Made by a program: the position numbers and the translations under genes. The notes beneath the pieces are model-generated. The model was given only the letters and a program-made list of their open reading frames with translations. It was not told the origin of the DNA and searched no databases. A stretch of DNA of 32,000 bases, taken from assembly GCF_016807185.1 (NCBI RefSeq), contig NZ_JAEVYN010000002.1:1630980-1662979 (forward strand), given 5' to 3'. Within the stretch, counting starts at the first letter, position 1, and every line of letters begins with the position of its first letter. Positions 4,625 through 17,735 of this stretch are shown in pieces. The stretch is from Leptolyngbya sp. Cla-17 (GTDB taxonomy: Bacteria > Cyanobacteriota > Cyanobacteriia > Leptolyngbyales > Leptolyngbyaceae).

Positions 4625-5797
4625 TTAAGAGACTATCGATGTTTGCCGCAGGGCTTGGATCGTTGTGATCGCGAATTCTGCCACTTGATCAATCTCAGCT
4701 TCCGTATTGAATCGGCCGATTCCAAATCGCAGAGAGGCATAAGCAAGCGCATCCGATCGTCCGATTGCCTGAAGGACGTGGGAAGGAGCCGATTTTGCGG
4801 CAGTGCAGGCAGAGCCAGAAGACAGGGCAACATGAGGCTGCAATCCCAGCAGTAGTGCTTGCCCATCCACACCATCCACGCTGATGTTAAGGTTTCCGGC
4901 CAGGCGCTGAGTAGGGTGCCCGTTCTGGTAAATCTTGTCCAGCTGGCTGAGGTGATGCCACAGGCGATCGCGCAGGTAGGACGTTTGCGCCGCTTCTGCA
5001 CCCATCTCATCAATACCTAACTGCACCGCTGCGGCAAAACCAACGATTTGCGGTGTGTAAAGCGTGCCGGATCGCAGTCCGCGTTCATGTCCGCCACCGT
5101 GTAGTTGAGGCGCAATCTGCACTCGTGGGTTGCGGCGACGCACATACAGCGCACCAATGCCTTTCGGACCGTAAATTTTATGTGCAGTGAGTGACATTAA
5201 ATCTATTTTCATTGCATTCACATTTAGCGGAATTTTGCCGATCGCCTGAGCTGCATCCGTATGAAACAAAATTCCACGTTGATGGCACAATGCGCCAATT
5301 TCAGCGATCGGCTGCAACACGCCAATTTCATTGTTTGCTGCCATCACCGACACTAAAATCGTATCGGGACGCAGGGCGTTTTCCAGGTCAGCTAGGCTAA
5401 TTAATCCATTCGACTGCACGGGCAAAAAAGTGATGTCAAATCCGAGCGATCGCAGGTAGCGGCAGGGGTCTAGCACCGCGTTATGCTCAGTCACCACAGC
5501 AACGATGTGCTTGCCGCGATCAAGGTAGGCCTCTGCTACGCCTTTGATTGCCAGGTTGTTGGCTTCCGTAGCTCCGCTCGTAAAGATAATTTCTTCTGGT
5601 GTTGCCGCGATCGCCGCTGCCAATTGTTCTCTAGCTTGCTGCACGGCTGCTTCGGCTTCCCACCCATATTGATGACTCACACTTGCAGGATTTCCAAAGT
5701 ATTGAGTAAAAAAGGGCATCATTGCTGCCATAACCCGTTGATCAACGGGCGTAGTGGAATGGCAATCTAAGTAAATCGGACGTGGAGAGGTATTCAT
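4625..5797 (-). CDS. iscS: cysteine desulfurase, group I NifS/IscS type (PLP-dependent)
   Basis: IYLDCHSTTPVD at the N-terminus, PLP-lysine motif SLTAHKIYGPKGIGALY, and the catalytic-cysteine loop LSSGSACTAAKSAPSHVL typical of group I desulfurases. 390 aa. Confidence 0.88.
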   Translation of the reverse strand: MNTSPRPIYLDCHSTTPVDQRVMAAMMPFFTQYFGNPASVSHQYGWEAEAAVQQAREQLAAAIAATPEEIIFTSGATEANNLAIKGVAEAYLDRGKHIVAVVTEHNAVLDPCRYLRSLGFDITFLPVQSNGLISLADLENALRPDTILVSVMAANNEIGVLQPIAEIGALCHQRGILFHTDAAQAIGKIPLNVNAMKIDLMSLTAHKIYGPKGIGALYVRRRNPRVQIAPQLHGGGHERGLRSGTLYTPQIVGFAAAVQLGIDEMGAEAAQTSYLRDRLWHHLSQLDKIYQNGHPTQRLAGNLNISVDGVDGQALLLGLQPHVALSSGSACTAAKSAPSHVLQAIGRSDALAYASLRFGIGRFNTEAEIDQVAEFAITTIQALRQTSIVS

Positions 5798-5935: not shown

Positions 5936-6637
5936 CTACTTGCATTTCAGAGAATTAAAAACAGTATTAGAGGTTTGCTTCGCGTTTAGCCCGATCGCGG
6001 TCACTGTTACTTGACGTTTACTATTCTCAAACGTCGCGATCGCGTCATATTTAGCTGCCGGGATACCTGGAAGCTGCTCGCTCAAAATAAGCTCACCCGT
6101 TTGAATCCGAACGGGCACCACAGAACCACAGAATTTCCTGTCTTCGATTGTTTCAGTGGTTGCCCGAAAATCTTCTCCAGAGCGGTAAGAGAAAGAAAAA
6201 TCAGGCGACGAAAAAAGATCGTAAGGATCAGTAGGTTTAGCAGCATAAACATCAGGAACAACCACGCTACCAACGGGAGTTTCCACATCTAGCGGCACTC
6301 TAGCAATAAATAACTCAACCCCTTTGAGTTCTGCCAATTTGGCGGGTGAGACTAAGTTGCCATCCCTAGGAAATCCAGGGCTAGTGACGATCGCCACCTT
6401 TGCCCCGCCAAAATTTGACCCAAACGCTCCTTGGGCACCCCCCGGAATTTGATAATCCATCAGGCTACGGGCAATCAAAGTCGCCCGCTGAGGATTAGCC
6501 GCATTACTAAAAAATTTGTAGACCAACCCCGCTGTCCCAATCGCCACCAGGGAAACGCCAGCTAAGGCGATCGCGATCGTTTCCCAGATGGTAACGGAAT
6601 ACTGGGATTGCACTGGTTTATCTGCCGCATCGGTCAT
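5936..6637 (-). CDS. hypothetical membrane-anchored protein (233 aa)
   Basis: One N-terminal TM helix (IWETIAIALAGVSLVAIGTAGLVYKFF) followed by a soluble domain. No recognised motif. Confidence 0.55.
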   Translation of the reverse strand: MTDAADKPVQSQYSVTIWETIAIALAGVSLVAIGTAGLVYKFFSNAANPQRATLIARSLMDYQIPGGAQGAFGSNFGGAKVAIVTSPGFPRDGNLVSPAKLAELKGVELFIARVPLDVETPVGSVVVPDVYAAKPTDPYDLFSSPDFSFSYRSGEDFRATTETIEDRKFCGSVVPVRIQTGELILSEQLPGIPAAKYDAIATFENSKRQVTVTAIGLNAKQTSNTVFNSLKCK

Positions 6638-6670
6638 GAAACTAAGCCTTGCTCTTGGATAACGAGGGAA

Positions 6671-6800
6671 AGTGCGAAGTGCGGAAAGAAACGTACGGAG
6701 TGCGGAGTTTAAAGTACGGAGTGTGAACTGTAGAGTTTAGGTTTATGACTTCTCTGTTCTGCTCTGCTCCCTATCTTATAGACTCCGTACTCCCAACCCC
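6671..6800. repeat. small dispersed (MITE-like) repeat copy with internal inverted repeats
   Basis: gtacggagt occurs at 6693-6701 and 6714-6722, and its reverse complement actccgtac at 6782-6790. gtgcggagt (6700-6708) is the reverse complement of the ACTCCGCAC core also seen at 9401, 11686 and 19567 (rc). The copy is intergenic, just downstream of ilvC. Confidence 0.6.
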
Positions 6801-6814
6801 TTACTCTATAATTC

Positions 6815-7858
<1,044 letters not shown>

Positions 7859-10194: not shown

Positions 10195-10528
10195 AAAATA
10201 GTTGCTTAGGAACGTACAGGCGAGATCCTAACGTCATTTCACAACTTGAGCCGTACAGAACCCGACTATTTTTACACCAATTTTAAGTCGGTCAATTCTA
10301 AGCGGTGACTTGTATTGCCGGACTTTTTAAAGTGGTACTGGATTTTTGAACTAGCCGTATCCAGCGTCAAAAAAGTTATAGCTGTCTAGAGAAAATCTGG
10401 CTACAGTTTATGAGGATGGTTGCGGTTGGCCTTGAGTCAGACAAAAAGGCAATTTCAAGAATTTTTCAGGCTCGTTGAACCAAGATTTATCAGGTCGCGA
10501 TCGCAACTTCATTCGGGGAAACCATTTA

Positions 10529-12148
10529 ATGCGTCTGTTCACAACCCTATCTGGCTTACGCTGCTACTTGGAATCCTATCGTTTTAGGCGGCATGACCTG
10601 GAGCCAGTCAGCGATTCCGATAGTTGGAAAATGCCCCTAGAAATTGGTTTTGTGCCTACCATGGGCGCTCTTCACGCAGGGCATCTCAGTCTCATTCAGC
10701 GCGCCCGTCGAGAGAATAAAATTGTTGTCGTCAGCATTTTTATAAATCCACTGCAATTTGGACCCACTGAAGACTTGCAGCGCTATCCCCGCACCTTAAA
10801 ACAAGACCAAATTCTCTGCGAACAAGCCAACGTCGATGCTTTATTTGTGCCCAATGCAGAAGAAATGGGAGCAGCATCTACTTCCCTGACTCAGGTGCTT
10901 CCTCCTTTAGCGATGACTAGCGAACTCTGCGGACGTTCTAGAGAGGGGCATTTTCAAGGCGTAGCAACAATTGTGACTAAACTGCTGAATATAGTGCAGC
11001 CGACTCGTGCTTATTTTGGACAGAAAGATGCCCAACAGCTTGCCATCATTCGCCAATTGGTTAAGGATCTGAACTTGCCTGTAGAAATTGTGGCGTGTGC
11101 GATCGCCCGTGAATCCAGCGGACTTGCTCTCAGTTCTCGCAATCAGTATTTAACTGACACTCAACGAGAGCAAGCGGCTACCATTTATCGGGCATTGCAG
11201 CAAGCGACCCACGCCTTTCAAGCTGGAGAGCGATTAGGTAGTAAACTAATCGGGGCGGTTAAGGCAGTGTTAACAACTGCACCCGATCTGATCCCCGAAT
11301 ACGTTGAACTGGTTCACCCAATGACTATGACTCCCCTAACCCAAATTGAGGACACAGGCTTATTAGCAGTGGGAGCCCGGATTGGCTCCACTCGCCTAAT
11401 CGACAATGTGCTGCTGAGCGATCGCAAACCAATCGTGGCGATTGATGGACCCGCTGGAGCCGGAAAATCTACTGTAGCAAGACAGGTCGCCCAAAACCTC
11501 GGTTTGTTTTATCTCGACACCGGAGCCATGTATCGTGCTTTCACCTGGCTCGTCATGCAGTCAGGGATCGCTCTTGACGACGAACCCGCGATCGCTGAAC
11601 TGGTCAGCCAGTGTCACATTGAGTTTAGGGATCAGGAGTCAGGGATGAGGGGTCAAGAGGGAGAAAACAACACTCCACACTCTGCACTCCGCACTCTCTC
11701 CATTTTCGTCAATGGGCAAGAAGTTACTCAAGCGATTCGCAGCCTAGAAGTCACTTCCCAAGTTTCTACGATCGCCGCTCAATCTGCGGTTCGTTGGGCG
11801 TTGGTACGGCAACAGCAACTCTATGGCAAGCAAGGTGGAATTGTGGTCGAAGGGCGAGATATTGGCACCAATGTGTTTCCCGACGCAGAACTGAAGATTT
11901 TTCTGACTGCGTCTGTGCAAGAGCGTGCCCGTCGTCGCCAGCGCGATTTACAAAATCAGGGCATGGGTGATGTCAGCCTAGATGAGTTGGAGCAGACAAT
12001 TTGCGATCGCGATCGTAAAGACAGCACTCGCGCTCTTGCCCCCCTGTGCAAAGCCGACGACGCGATCGAACTCATCACCGACGGCTTGACGATTCAAGCG
12101 GTCATCGATCAGATTGTTGAACAATACAATGCCGCCATCAACTTGTAG
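10529..12148 (+). CDS. panC: bifunctional pantoate--beta-alanine ligase / cytidylate kinase
   Basis: The N-terminal half is PanC (FVPTMGALHAGHLSLI, FGQKDAQQL). The C-terminal half is Cmk (IVAIDGPAGAGKSTVAR P-loop, EGRDIGTNVFPDAELKIFLTAS, RDRKDSTRALAPL). This fusion is characteristic of cyanobacteria. The ATG at 10529 is preferred over the TTG at 10475. Confidence 0.9.
   Translation: MRLFTTLSGLRCYLESYRFRRHDLEPVSDSDSWKMPLEIGFVPTMGALHAGHLSLIQRARRENKIVVVSIFINPLQFGPTEDLQRYPRTLKQDQILCEQANVDALFVPNAEEMGAASTSLTQVLPPLAMTSELCGRSREGHFQGVATIVTKLLNIVQPTRAYFGQKDAQQLAIIRQLVKDLNLPVEIVACAIARESSGLALSSRNQYLTDTQREQAATIYRALQQATHAFQAGERLGSKLIGAVKAVLTTAPDLIPEYVELVHPMTMTPLTQIEDTGLLAVGARIGSTRLIDNVLLSDRKPIVAIDGPAGAGKSTVARQVAQNLGLFYLDTGAMYRAFTWLVMQSGIALDDEPAIAELVSQCHIEFRDQESGMRGQEGENNTPHSALRTLSIFVNGQEVTQAIRSLEVTSQVSTIAAQSAVRWALVRQQQLYGKQGGIVVEGRDIGTNVFPDAELKIFLTASVQERARRRQRDLQNQGMGDVSLDELEQTICDRDRKDSTRALAPLCKADDAIELITDGLTIQAVIDQIVEQYNAAINL
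11633..11701 (+). repeat. repeat-family sequence embedded in frame (23 codons) in the Cmk domain
   Basis: caggagtcagggatgaggggtcaagagggagaaaacaacactccacactctgcactccgcactctctcc encodes QESGMRGQEGENNTPHSALRTLS. It shares caggag..., agaaaacaac...ctc and actccgcac (11686-11694) with the reverse complement of the intergenic copy at 19561-19640. Confidence 0.55.
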
Positions 12149-13285: not shown

Positions 13286-14995
13286 ATGAGCTATCGGATG
13301 AATCGCCGCGCCTATGCGGAAACCTTTGGACCAACCGTGGGCGATCGCGTCCGGCTCGCCGACACGGAGTTAATCATCGAAGTGGAGCAAGACTACACCA
13401 CTTACGGCGATGAGGTGAAGTTTGGTGGCGGTAAGGTGATTCGGGAAGGCATGGGACAGTCGCCAATCACCAATGCAGATGGGGCGGTAGATGCGGTGAT
13501 TACCAACGCGCTCATCCTGGATTGGTGGGGCGTTGTCAAAGCCGATGTGGGGATTAAAGATGGCAAAATTCACGCGATCGGCAAAGCGGGAAATCCTCAT
13601 ATTCAGGACAATGTGACGATTATTATTGGTCCCGGCACCGAGGCGATCGCCGGAGAGGGAATGATTCTGACAGCGGGCGGCATTGATACTCACATTCACT
13701 TCATCTGTCCTCAACAAATTGAAGTGGCGATCGCTGCTGGCATTACCACCATGATTGGCGGCGGCACCGGACCGGCAGCAGGCACCAACGCCACCACCTG
13801 CACACCGGGACCCTGGTATATGCATCGGATGTTGCAGGCTGCCGATGCCTTTCCGATGAATCTAGGCTTTTTGGGTAAAGGCAACAGCGGCAAACCAGAA
13901 GGACTTGTGGAACAGGTAGAAGCGGGGGCGATGGGATTGAAGCTGCATGAGGATTGGGGCACGACTCCAGCGGCGATCGACACTTGCCTTAGCGTTGCCG
14001 ATGAGTATGATGTGCAAGTTGCTATCCACACCGATACGCTGAATGAATCTGGCTTTGTGGAAGATACGATCGCCGCTTTCAAAAATCGTGTGATCCACAC
14101 CTATCACACCGAAGGCGCAGGCGGCGGACACGCGCCCGACATCATCAAAGTTTGCGGTCAGGCGAATGTATTGCCTTCTTCCACCAATCCCACCCGTCCT
14201 TACACAATTAACACGTTGGACGAACACCTGGATATGTTGATGGTCTGCCATCACCTCGACCCGGCGATCGCGGAAGACGTTGCCTTTGCCGAATCCCGGA
14301 TTCGTCGCGAAACTATTGCCGCCGAAGACATTTTGCATGATCTCGGTGCGTTCAGCATGATCTCCTCTGACTCTCAGGCAATGGGGCGCATCGGCGAAGT
14401 AATTATCCGCACCTGGCAAACTGGGCACAAAATGAAAGTGCAGCGGGGCAACCTCTCAGAAGATTCCAGCCGCAACGACAACTTCCGCGCCAAACGCTAT
14501 ATCGCCAAGTACACAATTAATCCCGCGATCGCTCACGGCATCGCTGACCATGTGGGCTCCGTAGAAGTGGGCAAACTCGCCGATCTTTGCCTCTGGCGAC
14601 CTGCCATGTTTGGCGTTAAACCCGAAATGGTGATCAAAGGCGGCATGATTGCCTGGGCGCAAATGGGCGATGCCAACGCCAGCATTCCCACGCCCCAACC
14701 CGTGCATATGCGCCCCATGTTTGCTAGCTATGGCGGCGCGATCGCCCACACGTCCCTCACCTTTGTGTCCAAAGCGGCGCTCAAAAAAGGGATTCCTGAT
14801 GAACTGGGCTTGCAGAAAAAAGCGATCGCGGTTTCCAACATTCGCCAACTGACCAAGCGCGACATGAAGCTCAACGATGCGCTACCCCACATGGAAGTAA
14901 ATCCCGAAACCTATGAAGTCCGTGCCGATGGGCAACTGCTCACCTGCGAACCCGCCACCATCCTCCCCATGGCACAGCGCTACTTCCTGTTTTAA
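13286..14995 (+). CDS. ureC: urease subunit alpha
   Basis: The [30 protein letters not shown]-terminus, [13 protein letters not shown] nickel ligands, GLKLHEDWG (carbamylated-Lys region), MVCHHLD and SSDSQAMGR. 569 aa. Confidence 0.97.
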
Positions 14996-15000
14996 TTCAT

Positions 15001-15315
15001 GGTTAACGTTCTTGTTTAAAGCGGGAACGTTTTTGTTTTCAGTGAGAACGTTCCTGTTTCAGGTAGGACGATTCCTGTTTCAAATAGGAATAATGCGGGT
15101 TGAAACAGCAATCGTCTTGTTTCAAGTGAAAACACTCCTGTTTTAAGTGAGCTGGTTTCTGGTTGAAACGACACAGTTCTTGTTTTAAGCTAAAACGTTC
15201 CGGTTACAAATGAGACCGTTGCGGTTTCAAACAGGAGTTTTCCTATCCTGAACTACGACAGTTTGGTTTTAAGCAAGACAGTTCTAGTTTTGGGCAAGAC
15301 TGTTGCCAAATCAAA
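15001..15315 (+). repeat. tandem array of 15 degenerate 21-nt units, consensus about YGAGAACGTTCCTGTTTCAAG
   Basis: Units read directly from the sequence at an exact 21-nt period: ggttaacgttcttgtttaaag / cgggaacgtttttgttttcag / tgagaacgttcctgtttcagg / taggacgattcctgtttcaaa / taggaataatgcgggttgaaa / cagcaatcgtcttgtttcaag / tgaaaacactcctgttttaag / tgagctggtttctggttgaaa / cgacacagttcttgttttaag / ctaaaacgttccggttacaaa / tgagaccgttgcggtttcaaa / caggagttttcctatcctgaa / ctacgacagtttggttttaag / caagacagttctagttttggg / caagactgttgccaaatcaaa. Confidence 0.9.
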
Positions 15316-15440
15316 TCTCAAATTTCCAGTTAGATCGAGAATTCCAGATCGAAATCTCCAAAAGTAACCTGAAATCGGGTGGAAAATTTATACTTCGGAG
15401 GCTACAACAGAGATAGTTTTCTTTCATTACCCATAAATTT

Positions 15441-15911
15441 ATGCTGGAAGTCATTACCCTGGCGTTGGCGACCCCGATCGCAAAAATTATTTTAGATAAA
15501 CTCTACGAAGGCATGGGGAGTAAACTGGGCGAAAAGGTATCAGAAGCGGCATCTGCACCGATTCAAAAGTTGGGACAGGCGGTATGGAATCGCTGCTTTA
15601 AGGGCAAACCAGGAACCGAGAAGGTTTTAGAAGCAGCAGCTAAAGGTTCGGAGCCAGAACTAAAGCAAATCCAGGACTACCTGCAAAAGGAAATGGAGAA
15701 TCCTGAATTTGTGGGTATGGTGCAGCCGATCGCTCAGGAAATCCATCAGGTGCTCGTGCAGATGGATGATGTGAATGCGGAGAATGTCCAGCAGAATGCG
15801 CGGGACGGGTTTCAAAATATCGGGACTGAAGGACCGATTCTTCAAGGGATTAAGGATTCACCGATTACTTTCACAACGCACAACTACCACGGTGTAAAGC
15901 CGACAGATTGA
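15441..15911 (+). CDS. 156-aa all-helical protein; by frame continuity, the N-terminal domain of the downstream NB-ARC/TPR protein
   Basis: ATG ORF with a hydrophobic/amphipathic N-terminus (MLEVITLALATPIAKIILDKLYEG) and predicted helical segments. It ends at TGA 15909-15911, in the same frame as ORF 16026..17735. No recognisable SD. Confidence 0.6.
   Translation: MLEVITLALATPIAKIILDKLYEGMGSKLGEKVSEAASAPIQKLGQAVWNRCFKGKPGTEKVLEAAAKGSEPELKQIQDYLQKEMENPEFVGMVQPIAQEIHQVLVQMDDVNAENVQQNARDGFQNIGTEGPILQGIKDSPITFTTHNYHGVKPTD
15909..15911 (+). other. single in-frame TGA separating the N-domain ORF from the NB-ARC/TPR ORF
   Basis: The context is AAG CCG ACA GAT TGA CTG GAG CCG. Hand translation of 15912-16025 is stop-free (LEPPEREQAKLNSTHNLDQRGTDIFVGREQELIDLHKV) and runs directly into LQGENAVAISAISGMGGIGKT. 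Confidence 0.9.
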
Positions 15912-16025
15912 CTGGAGCCGCCTGAACGGGAACAGGCAAAGTTAAACTCCACACACAATCTTGACCAACGCGGCACGGATATTTTCGTTGGACGAGAGCA
16001 GGAATTAATCGATCTGCACAAGGTA

Positions 16026-17735
16026 TTGCAGGGAGAGAATGCTGTGGCAATTTCGGCAATCTCTGGCATGGGCGGGATTGGCAAGACCGAATTGGCAGTG
16101 CAGTATGCATGGGAACATTTGGCGCAGAAAACCTATCCGGGTGGCGTGGTTTGGTTAAAAGCACGGGAAGACGTGGCAACGCAAATTGTGCTGTTTGCCC
16201 GATCGCTGCCGATGCCGCAACCACACGATGATTTTGAACTGGCAGAGAAGGTGAAGTTTTACTGGCGCAACTGGCAAGACGCGAAAACGCTGGTGATTTT
16301 GGATGATGTCCAGAATTATGGTGCCATCAAACCGCTGCTGCCAGTAGACCCGCGCTTCAAAATTTTGCTGACCACTCGCTGGCGGTTGCAATCGCCCGTA
16401 CAGGATTTTGAAATCAAGGTGCTGTCGGAGGAGAAGGCGATCGAGTTGCTAAGGGCGATCGTTTTTGATGGACGAATCGACCAGCAAATTGATGAAGCCA
16501 AGCGAATTTGTCAGTGGTTGGGCTACTTGCCACTGGGCTTGGAGTTGGTCGGGCGATATCTGGCGCGAAAACCGGATACATCGTTGGCAACCCTGTGGCA
16601 ACGCTTGCAGGACAAAAAGCTGAACGCGAAAGCGCTGAAAGATGCCGTCCCGGAAATGCCCGCAATTCTGGGAGTCACCGCCGCTTTTGAATTGAGTTGG
16701 GACGTGTTGGATGAGCTAGCGCAACAGTTGACAGCATTGCTGAGTCTGTTTGCCCTGGCAGAGATTCCCTGGACGTTGGTAGAAGCGTGTTTACCGGAGG
16801 AAGACCCAGAAGCGTTAGAAGATCGGCGGGATGAGTCGCTGGTCTCCCTACATCTGCTGGTACGCACCGGACAAGGCACGTACCAACTGCACCAACTGCT
16901 GCGCGAGTTTTTTGCGGCAAAACGGGCGGAAATGGCAGTAGATGAAGAGATGAAGCAAGCATTCTGCCGGGTGATGTCAGCTGTGGCAGATCAGATGCCA
17001 ATAAACCCAACCCGATCGCAGATTGAGCAATTTGCCCCGGTCATTCCCCACCTGAAGGAAGTCGCCGACACTCTCCATCCCTGGCTCACCGATGCTGATG
17101 TAATTAAACCCTCTACCCGAATTGCTCAGTTCTATGAAGGACAGGCAGCCTACGCCGAGGCACTACCCTGGTATCAACACAGTTTAGAAATCGCAGAAAC
17201 CAGATTAGGAGCAGAGCATCCCCATGTCGCCACCAGCCTCAACAATCTGGCAGGACTCTACCAATCCCAAGGACGCTACAGCGAGGCAGAACCGCTGTAC
17301 CTCAGAGCGCTAGCAATCTATGAACAGCAGTTGGGCGCAGACCATCCCGATGTCGCCACCAGCCTCAACAATCTGGCAGGACTCTACGAATCCCAAGGAC
17401 GCACCAGCGAGGCAGAACCGCTGTTCCTCAGAGCACTGGCAATCAGGGAACAGCAGTTGGGCGCAGACCATCCCGATGTCGCCACCAGCCTCAACAATCT
17501 GACATTACTCTACAAATCCCAAGGACGCACCAGCGAGGCAGAACCGCTGTACCTCAGAGCGCTGGCAATCCTGGTCGAGAAACTGGGAGACAACCATCCC
17601 AATACCCAAACGGGGCGGCAAAACTTCCGGTTCTTGTTGCAGCAAGTGATTCAGGCGGGGCAAACGGCGCAGCTATCGGAGCATCCGCTGACGCAGAAAC
17701 TCATTCAGCAATTACAAATGCAGAATCAGGAATGA
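16026..17735 (+). CDS. STAND NTPase of the NB-ARC (AP-ATPase) clade with C-terminal TPR repeats (NLR-like); the true 5' end is uncertain
   Basis: P-loop GMGGIGKTE (16065-16091), Walker B LVILDD (16290-16307), LLTTR (16365-16379), and the GLPL-type motif GYLPLGLE (16521-16544). The C-terminus has kinesin-light-chain-type 42-aa TPRs (ATSLNNLAGLYQSQGRYSEAEPLYLRALAIYEQQLGADHPDV, three copies). The track start TTG 16026 lies downstream of the conserved FVGREQEL pre-P-loop element (15984-16007). Confidence 0.85.
   Translation: MQGENAVAISAISGMGGIGKTELAVQYAWEHLAQKTYPGGVVWLKAREDVATQIVLFARSLPMPQPHDDFELAEKVKFYWRNWQDAKTLVILDDVQNYGAIKPLLPVDPRFKILLTTRWRLQSPVQDFEIKVLSEEKAIELLRAIVFDGRIDQQIDEAKRICQWLGYLPLGLELVGRYLARKPDTSLATLWQRLQDKKLNAKALKDAVPEMPAILGVTAAFELSWDVLDELAQQLTALLSLFALAEIPWTLVEACLPEEDPEALEDRRDESLVSLHLLVRTGQGTYQLHQLLREFFAAKRAEMAVDEEMKQAFCRVMSAVADQMPINPTRSQIEQFAPVIPHLKEVADTLHPWLTDADVIKPSTRIAQFYEGQAAYAEALPWYQHSLEIAETRLGAEHPHVATSLNNLAGLYQSQGRYSEAEPLYLRALAIYEQQLGADHPDVATSLNNLAGLYESQGRTSEAEPLFLRALAIREQQLGADHPDVATSLNNLTLLYKSQGRTSEAEPLYLRALAILVEKLGDNHPNTQTGRQNFRFLLQQVIQAGQTAQLSEHPLTQKLIQQLQMQNQE
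17211..17588 (+). repeat. three tandem 126-bp repeats, nearly identical at the DNA level, encoding 42-aa TPR units
   Basis: Copies start at 17211, 17337 and 17463, exactly 126 nt apart. For example, gcagaccatcccgatgtcgccaccagcctcaacaatctg is identical in copies 2 and 3. Confidence 0.9.

Follow-up and report, generated by a model that had tools for sequence, protein, structure and literature searches.

What an array of short tandem repeats is doing between a urease gene and a gene for an NLR-like protein is the question raised by a stretch of 32,000 nucleotides (nt) of Leptolyngbya sp. Cla-17 (contig NZ_JAEVYN010000002.1, positions 1,630,980 to 1,662,979 of the forward strand), referred to here as the window. 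The array runs on the forward strand from 15001 to 15315, just past the ureC open reading frame (ORF; 13286–14995), and is composed of 15 contiguous 21-nt units arranged head-to-tail with zero indels. Downstream of it lie p156, a gene for a small protein, and a reading frame with NB-ARC and TPR domains. The comparisons described below showed the array to be one member of a conserved cyanobacterial family of intergenic arrays. They also showed that its tightest partner is not the NLR gene with which the first-pass annotation of this DNA had associated it, but the gene of another small protein, p157, which adjoins an array in 13 of 14 distinct loci and is absent from the window.

The exact 21-nt period recorded in the first-pass annotation was borne out by autocorrelation, which reached 0.551 at lag 21, 0.51 at lag 42 and 0.56 at lag 63, versus a maximum of 0.377 in 2000 shuffles of the array region (lags 5–60) and of 0.378 in the best 315-nt stretch of the window outside the array. 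That top background corresponds to a weak lag-21 periodicity at 6511–6930 (autocorrelation 0.36–0.38). Tandem Repeats Finder detected only the best-kept portions of the array, with period 21 throughout. The array region is non-coding in all six frames, and its GC content is 0.39–0.40, versus about 0.55 in ureC. A coding repeat of seven codons was rejected because of stop codons in every frame, and an array of clustered regularly interspaced short palindromic repeats (CRISPR) was rejected because the units are contiguous (period equal to unit length) and no cas domains were found among the window neighbours. An Rfam scan of the array gave nothing at the gathering score and, at a permissive E-value, only chance microRNA-type matches far under the gathering scores. 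The units share a mean pairwise identity of 53% and a mean identity of 66% to the family consensus. Their similarity is independent of the distance between them, so they can be considered variants of one consensus and not recent duplications of neighbours.

The finer structure agreed with the first description only in part. The two alternating dyads about 10.5 bp apart were recovered, more clearly elsewhere in the family (units TGAGAAC-GTTCTCG plus TTTCAAG), as was the strict phasing that places the dyads on one helical face. The best-conserved columns of the window array were A5, T10, G14, T15–17 and A19–20, and not the whole of the GAAC/GTTC core named in the first description, while the perfect palindrome GAACGTTC, attributed to the best units, is present in a single one (15046). 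Degeneration toward the 3′ end was seen, but it is mild, and the weak last units are kept in orthologous arrays. The end of ureC, which had been read as a partial unit, lies 4 nt off phase and is native ureC coding sequence, as deduced from an array-less relative (locus L132) that ends in ...TTTTTGTTTTAAG.

Membership of the family was defined by at least six contiguous one-phase 21-nt units matching TGAGAACGTTCTTGTTTCAAG, with A5, T10, T16 and A20 conserved. At least 31 arrays of this kind were collected, with 388 units, 6–21 in each array, and the consensus TGAGAACGTTCTTGTTTCAAG. With its 15 units the window array belongs to them, and its first two units and its last ones are orthologous to those of L004 (Phormidesmis priestleyi) and L006 (Leptolyngbya sp. 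FACHB-36). Hits of the position weight matrix across the family arrays fell 334 times in phase and twice out of phase. Conservation peaked at G4 A5 A6 .. T9 T10 C11 and at G14 T15 T16 T17. A19 A20, with information maxima at A5, T10, T16 and A20. Each unit thus contains two dyads, GAAnnTTC and GTTTnAAR, whose axes are separated by 10.5 bp and whose centres (columns 7–8 and column 18) are unconserved. The consensus was identical across Leptolyngbyales and Nostocales, and copy number was equal in three near-identical pairs (window/L001, L004/L005 and L128/L129).

Concerning the distribution of the family, a degenerate four-unit pattern was run against 185,579 species genomes and returned mostly unrelated 21-nt tandem repeats. 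The true members among the matches listed were all cyanobacterial, bar one Sericytochromatia metagenome-assembled genome (MAG), and came from the genera Nostoc, Fortiea, Pelatocladus, Fischerella (three arrays), Stenomitos, Leptolyngbya and Myxacorys; one scaffold of Fischerella PCC 9431 carries at least three arrays. With a stricter pattern, 14 further arrays were found in metagenomes but not a single one in IMG/VR viral contigs; a search of 72,556 plasmids gave no match to the window array. Throughout the collection, all sources that carry a name are cyanobacteria or a Sericytochromatia MAG. The first-pass annotation had named the occurrence of the repeat at many unrelated sites, as a generic genomic repeat, among the outcomes that would refute its reading. 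The repeat does occur at many sites in Leptolyngbyales and Nostocales; their contexts are, however, non-random. Full-text literature searches on the unit sequence and on 21-bp cyanobacterial tandem repeats, in which subscription papers were partly outside coverage, gave nothing relevant. Elements such as interspersed intergenic repeats and cooperative tandem operators are already known as kinds; the p157-linked family of 21-bp arrays in strict phase seems to be undescribed.

The protein p157 is a conserved helical protein of 157 amino acids (aa) with 1395 homologs, 66–93% identical among the cyanobacterial sequences compared. A 21-nt-period array lies just 3′ of its gene in the 13 of 14 distinct loci mentioned above. 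Array and gene are on the same strand in L002, L004, L006, L012, L053, L127, L128/129, L130, L131, L145 and L149, and the 13 include L146, where a truncated p157 remnant abuts the array. The gap between gene and array was 21–240 nt where measured, and every readable cyanobacterial p157 locus has an array. Compared to the orthologous loci, the window array is an orphan, with ureC in the place of p157 and the first orthologous unit 5 nt past the ureC stop codon. In the p157 clade P0314/P0265/P0301 the unit is a variant, GTCGAAGTTTCGAG plus TTCTGAG, which keeps the GAAnnTTC core and the 14+7 layout; this is consistent with co-variation of protein and site. A distant case, counted among the 13, was found in Capnocytophaga cynodegmi (L096, 6150–6345), where about nine units of a different 21-nt repeat (ACAATATTTTAGTTTCTTGAA) follow the gene of a p157 homolog of 34% identity. 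The degenerate genome scan had also returned many well-kept 21-nt tandem arrays unrelated to the family, particularly in Bacteroidota MAGs (e.g., L013, L018, L021, L044, L068 and L072), and among the 8-kb tiles around such unrelated arrays a p157 homolog was present in L096 only. Searches of Pfam, NCBIfam, PADLOC and PHROGS assigned p157 to no family. In its structure model the protein is an all-helical bundle that has a basic tail (predicted local distance difference test score, pLDDT, 70). If the link with the arrays holds, they would give the p157 family its first functional handle, in the form of a testable DNA or RNA partner.

Concerning the folding of the array as RNA, the earlier proposal of a chain of short hairpins found partial support, from its first units and from the much better folding of the plus strand. 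In the window, L004 and L006, units 1–2 fold into a 12-bp hairpin with TTTTTGTTTT right after it; the terminator-like element is located at 15005–15042, 5529–5565 and 5673–5715, respectively. All 12 pairs are kept in the three sequences, five of them through one-sided G-U changes, and no compensatory double changes were seen among the three. Judging from its sequence, this hairpin probably terminates the transcription of ureC or, in the orthologs, of p157. At the start of a Nostoc array no plus-strand terminator was found. The plus-strand RNA was the stabler one in 26 of 28 arrays (−110 versus −80 kcal/mol in the window), with mean folding z values of −5.3 for the plus strand and −4.0 for the minus strand. 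A model with one hairpin per unit was discarded as weak: of 186 distinct units, 54 have a mismatched A-C at pair 3–12, and G-U also outnumbers A-C in shifted controls, an excess that is largely compositional, so the pair counts are unconvincing.

Our preferred reading, to which we assign a probability of about 0.4, is that from the third unit onward the array serves as a phased platform. A conserved factor that recognises the sequence, probably p157 supplied in trans, would bind there, and the toxic operon would be insulated. Units 1–2 would act as the intrinsic terminator of the upstream gene, their hairpin and its conservation being observed features. The other units would provide the multiple phased sites of the platform, and the likeliest factor to occupy them would be p157, encoded elsewhere in the genome and acting in trans on orphan arrays. 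The resulting nucleoprotein lattice might insulate or dampen the toxic p156/NLR operon against read-through and spurious activation. The stability of the consensus across orders argues for sequence-specific recognition rather than for bare structure. The recurrence of the same consensus and bases in different orders, together with the unconserved dyad centres and the lack of indels despite about 30% substitution, points to a conserved sequence-specific reader.

A number of observations weigh against this reading. No p157 was detected in the window by tblastn, and many arrays have no p157 nearby. Conversely, plasmid pTs417 of the gammaproteobacterium Thiodictyon (L152) encodes a 52%-identical p157 homolog without an array, the one exception among the 14 loci. 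The co-variation of protein and unit is not clean, as the p157 of L145 is divergent (about 50% identity) and yet accompanied by a main-type unit. Sequence and fold searches of p157 against PDB gave nothing significant and no recognisable DNA- or RNA-binding fold. On the side of the operon, L153 and L155 have homologous p156/NLR operons without an array, and the closest relatives (L133–135, p156 94% identical) have only the last ~2.5 units, which directly adjoin the stop codon of an Fpg/Nei-like gene. Since p156/NLR operons exist in these forms, any regulatory role of the array must be dispensable. Finally, a scan for the sigma-70 consensus located no promoter.

The genes around other members of the family are of several kinds. 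In L002 (a 6.3-Mb Joint Genome Institute, JGI, contig), L004 and L006 the order is p157, an array of 12–18 units sharing the family consensus, p156 and NLR, with outer neighbours that differ between the three. To that extent the earlier suggestion that array and NLR gene belong together was supported; it does not extend to the operons with ~2.5 units or none. A co-oriented NB-ARC-TPR gene was found by tblastn upstream of the array in L031, L136 and L142, and a truncated TPR-containing ORF in L010; L023 and L144 were assigned to the NB-ARC-TPR context through flank similarity only. These six arrays have in common a conserved 60-nt upstream flank. The genes 3′ of other arrays encode caspase-GUN4, AAA_16-TPR STAND, HNH, PIN, Uma2, type IIG restriction-modification and TnpB proteins, and in L027 the array stands between the MacB-type permease and ATPase genes of an ATP-binding cassette (ABC)-transporter operon. 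Two direct arrays in L030 (Fischerella sp. PCC 9431; 442–651 and 2018–2227), with homologous upstream flanks of about 35 nt, surround a DUF1778/GNAT toxin-antitoxin pair, a layout that would be expected if a circular cassette had been integrated by recombination between arrays (Campbell-type). The array family also borders cell-death and defence cassettes, and its position at the edges of NLR, restriction-modification and toxin-antitoxin cassettes in multicellular cyanobacteria may reveal how toxic genes are insulated, exchanged or silenced. Considering the 23 main-type arrays that could be assessed, 19 start 5–240 nt past the stop codon of a co-oriented gene, and the four arrays without such a gene are the two of L030 and those of L048 and L065. 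Y1_Tnp, a transposase of the Y1 type resembling REP-associated tyrosine transposases (RAYT), was seen within 3–4 kb of the array in L002 and L130 only, among the loci examined. No second array follows the NLR gene of the window.

The comparison with array-less relatives indicated where the synteny is broken. The ureC relative L132, 95% identical, has neither array nor cassette, and it matches the window exactly up to the ureC stop codon and no further. The homology of L133–135 (88% identity) begins at 15265. From these cases, together with L153 and L155, it can be said that the arrays coincide with rearrangement breakpoints and that the NLR operon is independent of them; the arrays seem to act as breakpoints for cassette exchange, further instances being the p157 remnant of L146 and the paired arrays of L030. 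The p156/NLR cassette follows different host genes in the window (ureC) and in L133–135 (the Fpg/Nei-like gene), and in both the junction falls exactly at the stop codon. It was also observed that the native ureC end of L132 (TTGTTTTAAG) resembles the 3′ half of the repeat unit, a likeness that may be microhomology at the junction. Of the sequence upstream of p156, the closest related cassette has kept the segment 15265–15440 alone, and the p156 promoter is therefore presumably located there, with TATACT (about 15389) as a candidate −10 element.

Among the alternatives to a protein-bound platform, an element acting at gene ends purely as RNA is possible, if rather unlikely. The array would be co-transcribed with the upstream gene, and its G-U-rich fold-back or multi-hairpin structure would terminate or attenuate read-through and protect the 3′ end of the mRNA, in the manner of repetitive extragenic palindromic (REP) sequences and bacterial interspersed mosaic elements (BIME). 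No dedicated protein would be needed, and the register would be kept by unit–unit pairing. Such an element would account for the placement of 19 of the 23 assessable arrays past a co-oriented stop codon, for the greater plus-strand stability (26 of 28 arrays; 30 kcal/mol apart in the window), for the preservation of the terminator through one-sided G-U changes and for the array inside the ABC-transporter operon of L027. It would leave unexplained the four arrays without a preceding co-oriented gene and the specific bases conserved across orders beyond what structure alone needs. Moreover, a terminator at the array start should leave the later units poorly transcribed, the Nostoc array lacks it on the plus strand, the hairpin of units 1–2 displays zero compensatory double changes, and pairing within single units is weak (A-C at pair 3–12 in 54/186, G-U excess in shifted controls). 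A selfish or neutral satellite-like repeat is, in our estimate, unlikely. Spread and reshuffled by recombination between arrays, it would supply portable homology at cassette junctions and would keep its 21-nt phase by concerted evolution. Recent homogenisation is argued against by units only ~53–70% alike within arrays, and equal copy number in the three near-identical pairs, zero indels despite heavy substitution, the fixed placement relative to p157 (13/14 distinct loci) and the recurrence of consensus and conserved columns across orders do not fit it either. On the other hand, the diverse contexts, the synteny breaks at or within arrays, the direct arrays with homologous flanks around the toxin-antitoxin cassette of L030 and the ability of p156/NLR to do without an array are in its favour.

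The two remaining explanations are of lower probability. It is improbable that the array is dedicated to the p156/NLR operon, as a cooperative operator or an upstream activating array bound by a regulator specific to that operon: no DNA-binding domain is encoded in the cassette, the homologous operons of L153 and L155 have no array and others have ~2.5 units, and genes for restriction-modification, TnpB, HNH, caspase and ABC proteins also follow arrays. This holds even though arrays with orthologous 3′-terminal units lie upstream of homologous operons in the window, L002, L004 and L006, and arrays lie directly 3′ of NLR genes in L031, L136 and L142. An iteron-type replication origin or a partition centromere, among the readings proposed in the first-pass annotation, found no support and is very improbable, although tandem 21-bp repeats on one face of the helix do resemble iterons and parC/sopC arrays. 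The setting is chromosomal, with at least three arrays on one Fischerella scaffold; plasmids and IMG/VR viral contigs gave no match; and, as that annotation had itself noted for the window, there is no Rep or Par gene nearby, Rep, ParA, ParM and TubZ genes being absent near the array of the window and near those of the related loci examined.

Comparison with known systems led to partial likenesses. The 15 × 21-bp window array falls in the size class of the tandem direct repeats of iteron origins (~17–22 bp), but its neighbours are ureC, p156 and NB-ARC-TPR, with no Rep gene. Centromere-binding proteins have ribbon-helix-helix (RHH), helix-turn-helix (HTH) or winged helix-turn-helix (wHTH) folds. 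For p157, which adjoins the arrays in 13 of 14 distinct loci, the all-helical model gave no significant structural match and the sequence none either. With ParR-parC and MetJ-metbox the arrays share many tandem short dyad sites at whole-turn spacing and a small conserved protein gene alongside (13/14 p157 loci). They differ from them in that the array is downstream of the candidate gene and not over its promoter, neither an RHH nor an HTH fold is apparent in p157, a partition NTPase is lacking, and orphan arrays are scattered in the chromosome. Like REP/BIME and pneumococcal BOX elements, some of which are terminators or mRNA stabilisers, they consist of imperfect palindromic units just past gene ends at many loci, with RNA folding. 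Unlike them, they are long, strictly head-to-tail, of fixed 21-nt period, free of indels, conserved in consensus across orders and tied to one non-transposase gene. A Y1 transposase gene was seen within 3–4 kb in two loci. The antitoxin RNA of type III toxin-antitoxin systems (ToxI) also has tandem direct repeats beside a small protein or toxic gene, with an associated terminator; its repeats are, however, of ~34–45 nt in 2–5.5 copies, versus 21 nt in 6–21 copies here, PADLOC found no ToxN/AbiQ-type endoribonuclease among p156, p157 and the NLR, and the adjacent genes vary between loci. The short tandemly repeated repetitive (STRR) heptamers and the NsiR1 arrays are likewise tandem intergenic repeats specific to filamentous cyanobacteria. 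The earlier exclusion of STRR and of the HIP1 octamer (GCGATCGC) was correct: the period is 21 and not 7 (autocorrelation 0.55 at lag 21, 0.28 at lag 7), and the units bear no relation in sequence to STRR or HIP1. NsiR1 units, unlike the 21-nt units, carry an individual promoter and terminator.

Table 1. Positions of the array, its parts and the adjoining genes in the window.
Feature	Positions	Strand	Basis or remark
ureC stop codon (TAA)	14993–14995	+	blastn match to L132 ends at 14995
Array, 15 × 21-nt units, TGAGAACGTTCTTGTTTCAAG family	15001–15315	+	Periodicity and orthologous arrays
Intrinsic-terminator-like hairpin, units 1–2 with T-run	15005–15042 (stem 15005–15031)	+	Kept in L004 and L006
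Last ~2.5 units with 125-nt spacer	15265–15440	+	Sole upstream part kept in L133–135
Weak 16th unit	15316–15336	+	Continues the array
p156, 156-aa stand-alone gene	15441–15911	+	84 homologs, alignment, structure model
In-frame TGA-CTG junction, p156/NLR	15909–15914	+	Invariant TGA-C
NB-ARC + TPR (NLR-like STAND NTPase) reading frame	15912–17735	+	In frame with p156
126-nt (42-aa TPR) repeat, 2.9 copies, 92% matching	17211–17570	+	Within the NLR gene

Concerning the operon downstream of the array (Table 1), the homologs of p156 are of about 150 aa and occur in Leptolyngbya-like cyanobacteria. Alignment and structure model agree in a conserved helical N-domain followed by a variable, disordered, Q/N/G-rich C-terminus. 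No match to p156 was found in Pfam, PADLOC, NCBIfam or PHROGS, and PADLOC gave for the window NLR a weak TPR-repeat match only. The first listed start codon of the NLR is a TTG at 16026, merely six codons ahead of the NB-ARC match. The Logan assembly of the window sequence (L001) ends just past p156, ahead of the NLR. The two reading frames are joined by an in-frame TGA-C that was invariant in nine loci (window, L133, L002, L004, L006, L031 at about 6421, L146, L153 and L155), in the variants TGA CTG GAG, TGA CTA CAG and TGA CCA GAG, followed by a conserved L/P-E/Q-P/S-P/S in the NB-ARC-TPR frame. TGA-C is kept even where the effector N-domains are not homologs detectable by BLAST and the NLRs are only 30–60% identical. 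In L141 a probable TIR-type N-terminal domain, recognised by eye, is fused directly to NB-ARC with no stop codon. The conservation of the junction suggests either a programmed UGA read-through, giving an effector-NLR fusion, or termination-reinitiation. A full-text literature search on stop-codon read-through in connection with NLR, bacteria and amyloid gave nothing on the TGA-C junction, which hints at a directly testable recoding or coupling mechanism in bacterial NLR systems.

By analogy, p156 resembles the effectors of the Bell/BASS type, which are encoded in pairs with NLR genes (Dyrka et al., bioRxiv 10.1101/2020.01.06.895854). As in those pairs, the window, from a filamentous cyanobacterium, combines a small effector, helical and with a C-terminal motif rich in Q/N/G, with an NB-ARC-TPR protein encoded directly behind it. 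It differs from them in its NLR, which lacks both an N-terminal motif and its own start codon and continues in frame after the invariant TGA-C. Searches found no Bell homology of p156. An extension of the preferred reading, that of a platform bound by p157, can be added here, although it seems doubtful to us. In it, p157 and the 21-bp arrays would constitute an unrecognised two-part system of multicellular cyanobacteria, with a trans-acting array reader whose lattices mark, silence or insulate mobile defence and cell-death cassettes (NLR, restriction-modification, toxin-antitoxin, TnpB). Capnocytophaga would have a distant Bacteroidota counterpart, and programmed UGA read-through could possibly yield a rare effector-NLR fusion beside an abundant free effector.

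Two minor observations concern other parts of the window. An Rfam match to 5_ureB_sRNA lies antisense inside ureC (13440–13723, minus strand; 108.7 bits versus a gathering score of 40) and may merely reflect the coding conservation of the urease alpha subunit. Further upstream, at 10475–12148, a single ORF joins pantoate-beta-alanine ligase and cytidylate kinase domains, as a PanC-Cmk fusion.

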